This document shows positions 44,201 to 47,200 of a stretch of DNA of 64,000 nt, piece after piece. The position numbers are program-made. Numbering within the stretch: the first letter of the stretch is position 1; each line of letters opens with the position of its first letter. Source of the DNA: Candidatus Aminicenantes bacterium. GTDB lineage: Bacteria > Acidobacteriota > Aminicenantia > UBA2199. The stretch covers positions 807,251 to 871,250 of the forward strand of contig CAVYQZ010000010.1 of NCBI GenBank assembly GCA_963770755.1. Direction: 5' to 3'.

Positions 44201-47200
44201 TGCAACGATTTGTGCGAAAATTCTAACCCTATCAAGATTATTGTCGAATGAAATATTGGAGGATTCATGATGAACTTTAAAAAGATCGGGTTGATTGTAC
44301 TGATGATGGCCGTATTGCTGATAGCTGCTGCAGGTGTTTTGCGGGCCGAGGATAACGCCGAAGTTCCGGTGACACCTTGTCCAAAAAAAGTGTCCGTGGT
44401 CGTAGATATGCTCAAGCCCACGATTTTTATGGAATACCGGTATTTCAGCGCTCAAGGCCAGGCCGAAATCGTTGCCGTCAAAAGCCCGGTCAGCGGATTG
44501 CTTTCAGAAATCATGGTCAGCGAAGGCAGCCTGGTGGATGCAGATCAGGAACTGGCTGTCATGAATGCCGGGATGAGCGAAGAAATAAAGAAGCTTGAAG
44601 CGGCAGCCGCCAAGGCTAAAAAAATCCTGACTGACCGGCAGAATTGGAAGGAAAAAAGCGAGCAGGCCATAAGAAACGCGGAAAAGGATTATCAAAAAGC
44701 CCTGGACCTGCTGAATGAAAAGAAGGCGCAAGCCGGCCAGATAGTCAAGGCACCCCTGGCCGGGATCGTTCACCTGGTCATGGCTCCCGGAACTGAAACC
44801 GAGGCGGGTGCCCTGCTGATGGAAATTTCCAATCCAAAACGGATGGTTTTCCAGGCTCCCCTGGCCGGTTCTGACCTGGGTTCATTGAAGGTCGGGGAAA
44901 AATTCATTGGCATGACCGAAGGAAGCGAGAGCCAAGTCGAGGCTAATGTTGTTGCCGTCAGCGATCATATGGTCTGTTTCGGAGTGGACAATGAAGACAA
45001 TCAGGTCAAAGATGGCGACACGTTCACTTTTAAGAAATTCATTGCCGAGCATGCCGATGCTATTGTCATTCCCAGCGACGCCATTCAGAAAGACAAACAG
45101 GGTGATTTTGTCTACGTGGCCGAAAAAAAGAAAGCCAAGAAAGTGTATGTGACCCTTGGGGCCGTGACCATGGATAAGACCATGGTTGTCAAGGGCCTGG
45201 ATACGGACGTGATGCTCGTAGTCTCCGGATTGGACTGCCTGGCTGAAGGCAAGAAAATCCGTATTGTCAACCGCGAAGAGTTGGCCAGGGAGCAAGTTGA
45301 AGTTCAGGTCAAGGAAAAGGAGAAACCCGCAGTCAAAAAAGATAAAAAAACAGCGAAACCTGAAAAGCCGGCGAAAATAGTGGACGAAGCGGAAACAATC
45401 GGTCAAGCCAGGCAAAACCGCTATATGATTGGGTTGACTTTTGAACGCTTCACCATCAATGACAAGAATTTTCGTGATTTCTATAGCAACCGTTTCAAAC
45501 ATATCCCTGGGCTTGAATTTTCGTACCAGGCTGTCGATAAAATAGATGTGTGGGCCGCAGCCCGGCTTTACACCGACAAGCAAACCACTGAATTTTATGA
45601 GGACACGGTTTCTTTCACCCTGATTCCTTTTTCACTCGGCGCACGTTTCCGCCCGGTGAAAATGGGCTCCTTTGAGCCGTTCGTTGGCGCCGGCTTCAAT
45701 GTTTATTACTATGGAGAATCAATCAGTGGTTCATCCGGGCTGGAAAATACCAGTGGCTTGGCGTTCGGCTTGCATTTTCAAGGCGGTTCTTATTTCTATT
45801 TCGGCCCTTCCTTCCTGAGAAGTATTTTCCAGAAACACAACCGTTCCTTGCTGGGAGAAATCTTCGTAAAATACAACATCATCAGCAAAACCCTGTCCGA
45901 ATTGCTTCCGGACGGTACCGACAAGTTTGACCTCGGTGGCATTGAGATCGGCCTCGGTATTGTCGTAAAATTCTAGCAAAACCGGATCAGGACGAATATT
46001 GTTTGAAGCCCCGGGCCCTGCACCGAACCATTTGTAGCTAGAGAAACGGATTTCGCGAGACAGGCCCGGCGGGCCATTTTAGTACTGGCATTTGTTTTTC
46101 AAAGCTCATTTTGATTCGCGATTAATTCGCTGCCCCTGGCGTTGCAAATATTCCGGAATACCCATAAAATCATCGTATGAATAAAATTGTTTTTCATGGA
46201 ATCTCGGTCCGGGGAAATCACTCAATTCACGTGATGGTTCCGCTCCAGCGCTCATTTTGGGAATGAGATGCAGGCACTCGTAACCGGCGCCACGGGATTC
46301 ATCGGCAGCCATCTGGTCCGCGCATTGAAGACCGGCGGTTGGGATGTGCGTGTTTTTGTCCATGAAACACCCTTGGCTGACGTGTCGGGCCTTGAATCCT
46401 GGGTTGGAGATATTCGCGATGCGGCCGTTCTGGAAAAAGCCATGGCCGGTGTGGATGTCGTTTTTCACCTGGCTGCCGCCGTCGGATCGGTGGTCAGAGA
46501 ACCGCATGCTTTTCGGGAGGTCAACCTGGAAGGTTCCAGGGTGCTGCTCGCTGCGGCGCGCAAGGCCGGGGTCGGGCGCGTGGTCCATTTCAGCTCCATT
46601 GGGGTGTTGGGGGCTGTCAAGGCCGGGGAAACGGCTGCGGAAGACTATCTTCCCGCTCCAAAAACCCTATATGACAAGACAAAGTTTGCAGCCGAGGAAG
46701 CCGCCCGCCTGGCGGCGGCAAACGGGCTTGACGTGGTTATTATCCGCCCGGGTTGGGTTTATGGCCCCGGTGATCGGCGGACGTACAAGTTCATCCGTGC
46801 CGTCTGCAAGCGCAAGTTCGCCCTGGTCAGGGGCGCGCCGGGCAGCCAAACCCCGGTTTACATCGATGACTTGATAGCCGGGACCCTCCTCGTTGCCGCC
46901 AAAGGAAAACCGGGATCGGTGTATCATCTGGCCGGAAACGAGATTCTGACCGCTGACGAAATGGCGCGCGCGGTCGCATCGGCCTGCGGGGTCGGGTCCC
47001 CGCGGCTCAAATTGCCGAAGTGGCCCACGATGGCAGCGGCCTTCGTTCTCGAGAAAATTTTCGCCATGGTTAAAAAAGAAGCTTTTCTCAACCGCGGCAA
47101 GCTCTCCTTCTTTCTTGACCCGAAGGCGATGTCTTCCTCCCGGGCCAAAAACGAGCTTGGGTATGGCCCGCAGATGGGATTTCATCGGGGAATCGCGCTG

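Follow-up and report, generated by a model that had tools for sequence, protein, structure and literature searches.

A periplasmic adaptor module joined to a predicted outer-membrane beta-barrel in Candidatus Aminicenantes

Periplasmic adaptor proteins (PAPs), or membrane fusion proteins (MFPs), are attached to the inner membrane through a lipobox cysteine at the N-terminus or through a transmembrane helix (PMC4446572, PMC13328181), and a motif at the tip of the adaptor hairpin, RxxxLxxxxxx[S/T] (RLS/RLT), mediates binding to TolC-type ducts (PMC3391258). Naturally fused dimeric adaptors such as DSY0927 of Desulfitobacterium hafniense have been described as well (PMC4446572). The adaptor reviews of 2015, 2021 and 2026 describe inner-membrane anchoring alone, and our literature search, which included full text, revealed no fusion of an adaptor with an outer-membrane barrel and no account of the Aminicenantes envelope. 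Here we analyze a gene that encodes such a fusion, located in a 64,000-nucleotide stretch of DNA (the window) from a Candidatus Aminicenantes bacterium (assembly GCA_963770755.1, contig CAVYQZ010000010.1, positions 807,251 to 871,250 of the forward strand). A preliminary description of the window had reported an MFP that continues into a barrel-like C-terminal domain, flanked by two secreted propeller/FN3 proteins. Positions of window features are collected in Table 1.

The adaptor-barrel protein and its predicted fold

The adaptor-barrel protein is encoded by one continuous open reading frame (ORF), preceded by a GGAGG ribosome-binding site 6 nt before the start. To place its N-terminal part, we compared it with domain families and modeled its structure. 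The Pfam families HlyD_3, Biotin_lipoyl and HlyD_D23 matched within residues 65-239. HlyD_3 was found above its cutoff (E value 1.7e-11, 45.2 bits vs 22.2), whereas HlyD_D23 remained below (23.8 bits vs 30). The NCBIfam model RND_mfp (TIGR01730) was aligned nearly end to end, over model positions 15-321 of 322, with a score of 87.9 bits that lies under the cutoff of 94.9. The AlphaFold2 (AF2) model of the full-length protein, built from 49 family sequences, reached a pLDDT of 79, with low confidence just in residues 1-35 and 352-383. It contains the MP domain (membrane-proximal domain) with its N-strand, the beta-barrel domain, the split lipoyl domain and the hairpin, and residues ~40-345 superpose in Foldseek on MexA, AcrA, TMexC, MacA, ZneB and BesA over 310-345 columns with E values of 1e-17 to 1e-12. 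In the model, these residues thus form a complete four-domain adaptor fold, in agreement with the MFP hallmarks (split lipoyl domain, coiled coil, beta-barrel and MP domains) that the preliminary description had recognized.

The two hairpin helices, residues 104-125 and 132-156, comprise only ~22 and 25 residues. Together with the lipoyl domain, the hairpin is the most conserved region of the protein in the family alignment. The TolC-binding motif is carried by none of 49 family members anywhere in the hairpin region. Each adaptor module of the family has the sequence KCPxK at its start and SGFECL inside, from which two family-invariant cysteines derive, Cys38 (44378-44380) and Cys324, both within or beside the MP domain; a disulfide between the two would be plausible. 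No known peptidoglycan-binding domain was matched in the adaptor-barrel protein with Pfam and NCBIfam.

The C-terminal part was also modeled alone, which yielded a closed antiparallel barrel of eight strands (pLDDT 86, pTM 0.78). Foldseek matched this model to the OmpA transmembrane domain (OmpA-TM), NspA, Ail, OmpX and OmpW, while the autotransporter translocators NalP, AIDA-I and BrkA matched at TM scores of merely 0.26-0.42. Since eight strands are modeled and the matches belong to the OmpA-TM/OmpX/OmpW class, the C-terminal region is assigned as a membrane barrel. A soluble beta-sandwich was rejected on the same model and matches, and a type Va autotransporter on the number of strands. At the level of sequence families, the only Pfam match of the barrel in the window protein was OmpW (E value 0.017), which at 15.5 bits is below the cutoff of 24 bits; matches to PF13505 are present in many orthologues and relatives. 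The domain searches proposed in the preliminary description therefore returned one adaptor family above its cutoff, but neither HlyD_D23 nor a barrel family.

The protein ends in G-I-V-V-K-F, a beta-signal of the type recognized by the beta-barrel assembly machinery (BAM; pattern G-x-x-hydrophobic-x-aromatic, present here as G-x-x-V-K-F). In alignment A1, G564 does not vary, and G562 and F569 hardly do. The predicted extracellular loops L1 (residues 396-411) and L4 (residues 543-557) are conserved as strongly as the strands, and the periplasmic turns are the most variable part of the barrel. Such loop conservation, unusual for outer-membrane proteins, hints at a constrained outer face. The adaptor and barrel halves are both under constraint in the family alignment, and the linker between them is the least conserved region of the protein. 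Its first ~16 residues are predicted to be helical and the remainder is of low confidence. Family-wide, linker length ranges from 24 to 88 residues (median 51), with a composition of 20% E, 19% K and 17% A. The preliminary description of a K/E/P-rich linker leading into a C-terminal barrel that ends in Phe is hence borne out.

The N-terminus has a KK n-region, a hydrophobic core and the sequence ...VLRA|ED, without a lipobox, and a cleavage-like site of the pattern [LVM]-x-A|[AED] is kept across alignment A1. In the AF2 model this segment is a helix of low confidence, and cleavage was assessed by eye from the sequence. The N-terminus thereby resembles a substrate of signal peptidase I, although it may instead be an uncleaved signal anchor like that of MacA. 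A lipoprotein adaptor was considered and rejected, as the lipobox is missing and the conserved cysteine recurs inside internal modules of longer family members; because Cys38 also opens these internal modules, it cannot be lipidated there.

Family distribution and architectures

To determine how widespread the fusion is, we searched for related proteins. A protein search returned 65 relatives, of which about 50 are full-length with identities of 36-70%. The identical protein (P0001; P and L numbers denote proteins and loci of our collection) was found on a 1.03-Mb contig. Relatives with an organism name belong to Candidatus Aminicenantes, and some are automatically annotated as 'AcrA / outer membrane protein W'. 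The architecture is shared by about 50 independent clusters, drawn from JGI, ENA, NCBI and Logan assemblies, and the fusion occurs in >20 species-level metagenome-assembled genomes (MAGs). A scan of species-representative genomes added 22 loci (L006-L027) from Aminicenantes/Acidobacteriota MAGs, a few of which carry other bin labels. An exhaustive search with the barrel alone retrieved just 116 representative clusters out of 1.84 billion proteins. The search for homologous fusions that the preliminary description had called for thus yielded a sizable set of orthologues whose neighborhoods could be compared.

Domain profiles (hidden Markov models) built from the family were used to assign architectures. 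Adaptor modules are present in MFP-barrel (the architecture of the window protein), MFPx2-barrel, MFPx3-barrel (P0100, 1331 aa), MFP-X-barrel and X-MFP-barrel, and the modules of multi-module chains are joined by E/K/A-rich linkers of about 70-105 aa. Architectures without an adaptor are X-barrel, AMIN-barrel, AMINx2-barrel, BACON/Ig-barrel and a bare barrel of ~190 aa. The X domain is a segment of ~75 aa with the motif EFIAYLEANKEALxYERYE...SGLETQKKLL...FEL.D..VVSTIxF, which can precede or follow the adaptor modules or stand by itself ahead of the barrel (Table 1). It matched no Pfam or NCBIfam family.

Two loci of the family deserve separate mention. In one, divergent adaptor-barrel paralogues stand in tandem (L024:3391-5037 and L024:5138-7102), the first of which (548 aa) has a reduced lipoyl/HlyD part. 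In another (L036:8001-10977), the MFP-MFP part and the X-barrel part are separate ORFs that share 20 nt, with a +1 change of frame between them. The split probably reflects either a frameshift from sequencing or a fused gene that has become a pseudogene; as the second ORF lacks a signal peptide, we regard this locus as a broken copy.

Taken together, our results show that the adaptor-barrel family is conserved, lineage-restricted, probably outer-membrane-anchored by its predicted barrel, and not located next to pump genes, as detailed below.

Genomic setting of the family

To assess whether a pump is encoded nearby, nearly all large ORFs of the window (all but 15347-17822, 17913-18641 and 20267-21666) were searched with Pfam, and no efflux component was found; the only ABC (ATP-binding cassette) system is a FecCD/Peripla_BP_2 importer (Table 1). 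The screen was extended to ~477 kb around 27 family loci, with ±10 kb of context per genome, using motif searches and BLAST with Pfam spot checks of large neighbors. No homologue of a resistance-nodulation-division (RND) transporter or a TolC-like outer-membrane factor (OMF) and no ATPase with Walker-A and LSGGQ motifs was detected in these loci, and the scans of the window and the loci together turned up only a FecCD-type importer, an S9 peptidase, GT-C enzymes (membrane glycosyltransferases) and similar. In control loci, by comparison, which belong to ordinary adaptors retrieved by the same searches, the typical MFP+RND+OMF layout was evident (L028-L031: a 380-aa MFP, a gene of ~1130 aa and a gene of ~420-470 aa), or the MFP was followed directly by ACR_tran (L032). 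The absence of pump genes stated in the preliminary description consequently holds for the scanned ORFs of the window and for the family loci.

What does recur beside the family genes is a gene for a secreted protein of ~490-640 aa with a propeller-like N-terminal part followed by FN3/PKD domains. Such a gene is the immediate neighbor in 16/23 scorable loci; by inspection, the window, L008 and L023 also have one adjoining the family gene. Orthologues of the divergent window gene, 56-62% identical, occupy the same position in L001-L003, where the orthologue of the downstream gene starts 10-13 nt after the adaptor-barrel stop codon. In L014, L018 and L026, barrel genes and propeller genes alternate in arrays. 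The two flanking proteins of the preliminary description are present on either side, but on the downstream side an epimerase gene intervenes, and their assignment as propeller/FN3 proteins is tentative: the evidence consists of a BP39L lectin match (1.1e-5), weak matches of the family profile to GH43 (E value 0.0023) and tachylectin propellers, and FN3/PKD matches found in relatives. Searched singly against PDB sequences, the flanking proteins matched nothing. No C-terminal domain of the type IX secretion system (T9SS) or other sorting-signal family was found in the neighbors with NCBIfam.

Further recurrent neighbors are several GT-C (PMT_2) genes, sulfatase-family enzymes and a carbamoyltransferase/SxtJ/DUF5989 set, and a sugar epimerase gene adjoins or lies near the family gene in 12 loci. 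The same locus type also houses members of the barrel family that carry no adaptor. Around the AMIN-barrel genes of P0137 (L033:3775-5187) and P0114 (L034:8001-9101), we found the carbamoyltransferase-SxtJ-DUF5989 genes, GT-C genes and propeller-PKD/FN3 genes, including homologues of 42382-44124. The link to the flanking secreted proteins suspected in the preliminary description accordingly finds support in both the adaptor-barrel and the AMIN-barrel loci. Because AMIN-barrels occupy the same locus type, the conserved unit combines a GT-C enzyme and a propeller-FN3/PKD protein with a head-barrel protein whose periplasmic head is exchangeable and may be AMIN, X or between one and three adaptor modules. 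The AMIN-(AMIN)-barrel proteins look like an undescribed class of tether between the outer membrane and peptidoglycan.

Several other features of the window were observed. The carbamoyltransferase-SxtJ-DUF5989 trio lies at 29536-31748 and occurs also in L002, L003, L006 and L033. Upstream of it is a hexapeptide acyltransferase gene in the window, L002, L003 and L006, and a GDSL lipase gene in L033. The presence of the trio beside the locus suggests a carbamoylated or acylated glycan product. Positions 24668-29310 are a diverged (70-80% nucleotide identity), deletion-bearing copy of 34377-47505. The duplicated genes are a GT2 gene and a gene for a membrane protein of ~650-720 aa (24668-27719 matches 34377-37237); ORF 27903-28529 is chimeric, with a PMT_2-like 5' end (~40250-40453) and an epimerase 3' end (~46980-47407), and a remnant at 47401-47505 matches the end region of the hexapeptide-transferase gene (29206-29310). 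The genes dnaA-dnaN-recF-gyrB-gyrA at 5104-13746 mark the chromosomal replication-origin region, which places the envelope locus about 10-40 kb from oriC. The large ORFs 35138-37303, 25620-27563, 32074-34092, 40193-41353 and 49570-51156 matched no Pfam or NCBIfam family; at least two of them, 40193-41353 and 49570-51156, look like hydrophobic membrane proteins of the multi-pass type.

Table 1. Positions of the adaptor-barrel gene, its parts and other features of the window, and of the X domain in family loci
Feature	Position	Strand	Basis or remark
Adaptor-barrel fusion gene, 569 aa	44267..45976	+	one continuous ORF; coordinates include the stop codon
Predicted Sec-type signal peptide, aa 1-27	44267..44347	+	sequence reading and alignment A1
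Four-domain periplasmic adaptor (PAP/MFP) module, aa 40-335	44384..45271	+	Pfam, NCBIfam, AF2, Foldseek
Short alpha-helical hairpin, aa 102-156, tip ~126-131 (NWKEKS)	44570..44734	+	AF2, conservation
E/K/A/P-rich linker, aa 336-383	45272..45415	+	AF2, family alignment
Predicted 8-stranded outer-membrane beta-barrel, aa 384-569	45416..45973	+	separate AF2 model, Foldseek
Promoter-like TTGACA-17 nt-GAAAAT with extended TG, 5' of the fusion gene	44193..44221	+	consensus match only
Divergent promoter-like site for the minus-strand neighbor of the fusion gene	44162-44134	-	
Secreted propeller-like protein with FN3-like domains, ~580 aa, divergent	42382..44124	-	MRWRTY... start, then signal peptide
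Second secreted propeller-like/FN3 paralogue, 507 aa	47991..49514	+	
NAD-dependent sugar epimerase/dehydratase, 322 aa	46268..47236	+	
GT-C (PMT_2) membrane glycosyltransferase, 843 aa	37429..39960	+	conserved locus member
FecCD/Peripla_BP_2 importer with TonB-dependent receptor alongside	55337-57935		only ABC system of the window
X domain	L026:3342-4184, L014:12436-13422, L018:14928-15899		also inside L005, L012-L022, L024, L027

Possible roles and comparison with known systems

The reading that we favor, although we give it somewhat less than an even chance, is that the adaptor-barrel protein faces the periplasm from an anchor in the outer membrane and acts as an adaptor-like scaffold or tether, together with the propeller proteins and with the machinery for envelope glycans, and not as a classical adaptor of a tripartite pump. 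We infer this function from structure, geometry and synteny. The precursor would be exported by the Sec system and cut by signal peptidase I after ...LRA, and BAM would recognize the G-x-x-V-K-F signal and insert the eight-stranded barrel into the outer membrane, as is expected from the modeled fold and the signal found. Since a barrel with an even number of strands has both ends in the periplasm, the adaptor module would hang under the outer membrane from its MP domain, on a charged spacer of 24-88 aa. This geometry would place the MP domain next to the outer instead of the inner membrane, and the conserved hairpin would point inward. A side-by-side association of the modules like that in adaptor hexamers is probable, and the natural two- and three-module chains are consistent with it; the E/K/A-rich inter-module linkers of ~100 aa could equally space the modules along the periplasm. 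The barrel would serve as a generic anchor that carries an AMIN or X domain instead in the same kind of locus. Synteny suggests the secreted propeller-FN3/PKD proteins and the products of the GT-C cluster as likely partners, and the assembly might keep the propeller proteins, or a layer of the envelope, at the outer membrane or below it. The tether to a surface structure proposed in the preliminary description finds no support, as standard barrel topology keeps the adaptor in the periplasm and nothing places the neighboring proteins at the cell surface.

Four points speak against the scaffold reading. The connection to the propeller proteins is one of synteny, which may reflect a shared envelope locus and not contact. 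The module is complete, with conserved lipoyl domain, hairpin and MP domain, as expected if it docked on a distant transporter. Pump genes could lie farther away than the ±10 kb of context covered per genome. Finally, one distant BACON/Ig-barrel relative (P0076, L035:5337-9920) is encoded directly downstream of an ABC_tran+FtsX (MacB/Lol-like) pair, the sole member of the barrel family seen beside an exporter-type ABC system.

The alternative that fares best, which we nevertheless consider unlikely, is a true pump adaptor whose inner-membrane transporter is encoded elsewhere, and whose barrel replaces or supplements docking on a TolC-like duct. In one version, an ABC or RND exporter would pass hydrophobic or glycolipid cargo via an OmpW-like barrel with a lateral opening. 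The complete four-domain fold, the end-to-end RND_mfp alignment, the strong conservation of hairpin and MP domain and the position of P0076 all agree with a distant pump. However, the score against TIGR01730 stays under the cutoff, the TolC-binding motif is missing throughout the 49 sequences, and no transporter or duct gene was detected in the 27 loci, although adaptors are usually encoded in operons with their pumps, as the controls show. That AMIN and X domains substitute for the adaptor in the same locus type likewise speaks against a pump. Geometry provides a further argument. The MP domain of a classical pump adaptor lies at the inner membrane and is separated from the outer membrane by ~170-200 Å, which corresponds to the length of one adaptor plus the periplasmic tunnel of TolC. 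The shortest linkers of the family have about 20 free residues and span at most ~70 Å from the MP domain to the outer membrane, so that the classical geometry is excluded for short-linker members; for members with longer linkers it is strained. The two- and three-module chains, on the other hand, would fit a hexamer, and fused dimeric adaptors are known in real pumps (PMC4446572).

A tether or spacer between the outer membrane and the envelope, similar to OmpM, OmpA or Lpp, is rather unlikely in our estimation. Here the adaptor head would bind peptidoglycan, a periplasmic glycan or an inner-membrane protein, the charged spacer would set the distance, and the propeller proteins would not be needed. 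AMIN is annotated as a peptidoglycan-binding domain, and the same barrel family carries one or two copies of it. The spacer, rich in E, K, A and P, variable in length and partly helical, and the repeated modules, set apart in the chain by linkers of about 100 aa, also fit this role. In the adaptor module itself, however, no known peptidoglycan-binding domain was matched, nothing in the data indicates the need for such a tether, and the proposal overlaps heavily with the scaffold reading, from which it differs in the ligand alone.

It is improbable that the protein is the outer-membrane part of a secretion or display route for the propeller-FN3/PKD proteins, or displays its own adaptor in the manner of an autotransporter. 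The conserved gene pairing, including the alternating arrays, the conserved extracellular loops and a passenger-linker-barrel layout that superficially resembles autotransporters would be compatible with such a route. Yet eight strands compare with 12 in autotransporters and >=16 in protein-conducting barrels; because eight-stranded barrels such as OmpA, OmpX and OmpW have no lumen for a polypeptide, the export route considered in the preliminary description is not supported. Sorting-signal families are missing from the neighbors (NCBIfam), and the surrounding genes encode neither an energy source nor a component for the inner membrane. The chance that the fusion arose from a frameshift, a chimeric assembly or the misreading of two genes as one is next to negligible: the split copy L036 demonstrates that such errors or pseudogenes occur, but the window ORF is unbroken and the fusion is retained in about 50 orthologues. 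Neither of the two outcomes that the preliminary description had named as refuting it, a soluble C-terminal sandwich and a frameshift, was thus obtained.

Returning to the scaffold reading, we can also envisage a bolder form of it, which is a distinctly unlikely one. The adaptor-barrel, propeller-FN3/PKD and GT-C proteins would together constitute an unrecognized envelope machine of Aminicenantia, in which a TolC-independent adaptor ring hangs upside-down from the outer membrane and acts as a periplasmic dock or conduit for the assembly or export of surface glycoproteins or glycans. In the extreme variant, the N-terminal segment would remain uncleaved, so that one polypeptide would be embedded in both membranes.

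If the scaffold reading is correct, the adaptor fold has been recruited to a different envelope job: a complete fold planted in the outer membrane, in one to three copies per chain, away from pump genes and swappable with AMIN. Our analysis identifies a portable eight-stranded anchor module, and the three-part gene set could open the cell-envelope biology of an uncultured phylum-level group. The present labels 'efflux RND transporter periplasmic adaptor' or 'AcrA' probably mislead resistance-gene surveys.

Compared with known systems, the adaptor-barrel protein shares its four-domain fold with the pump adaptors AcrA/MexA (RND), MacA (ABC), ZneB/CusB (heavy-metal efflux) and BesA. Unlike these, it has a cleavable-looking signal peptide, a C-terminal outer-membrane barrel, a short hairpin without the RLS/RLT tip motif and two family-invariant cysteines by the MP domain; its TIGR01730 score is under the cutoff, and pump genes are not adjacent. 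As judged from reading the sequence, lipobox anchoring of the adaptor type is lacking. The fused adaptors of the DSY0927 type are alike in their tandem modules, of which members of the family have two or three in one chain, but the adaptor-barrel chains differ in having E/K/A-rich linkers and a terminal barrel, and no associated pump.

Similarities on the barrel side are equally partial. Type Va autotransporters have the same succession of signal peptide, N-terminal functional domain, linker and C-terminal barrel ending in Phe, but their barrel has 12 strands with a pore-filling linker helix. As the adaptor-barrel protein has eight strands and no such helix, its N-terminal module is expected to stay periplasmic. 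With the eight-stranded barrels OmpA/OprF (N-terminal domain), OmpW, OmpX/Ail, NspA and PagL it shares an OmpA/OmpW-class fold and the C-terminal signal, although the extracellular loops of the family are unusually conserved relative to these small barrels. In OmpA/OprF, the barrel is N-terminal and the periplasmic domain C-terminal, whereas this order is reversed in the adaptor-barrel protein, where the periplasmic part is an adaptor. AMIN-barrel proteins share the barrel family and the locus type, but the adaptor-barrel protein has no recognized peptidoglycan-binding domain. In OmpM-type proteins, SLH domains are combined with large porin barrels. With these OmpM/SLH-porins, the adaptor-barrel protein has in common a layout in which a periplasmic domain at the N-terminus is followed by a spacer and then by the barrel at the C-terminus, and a likely role of the barrel as an anchor.

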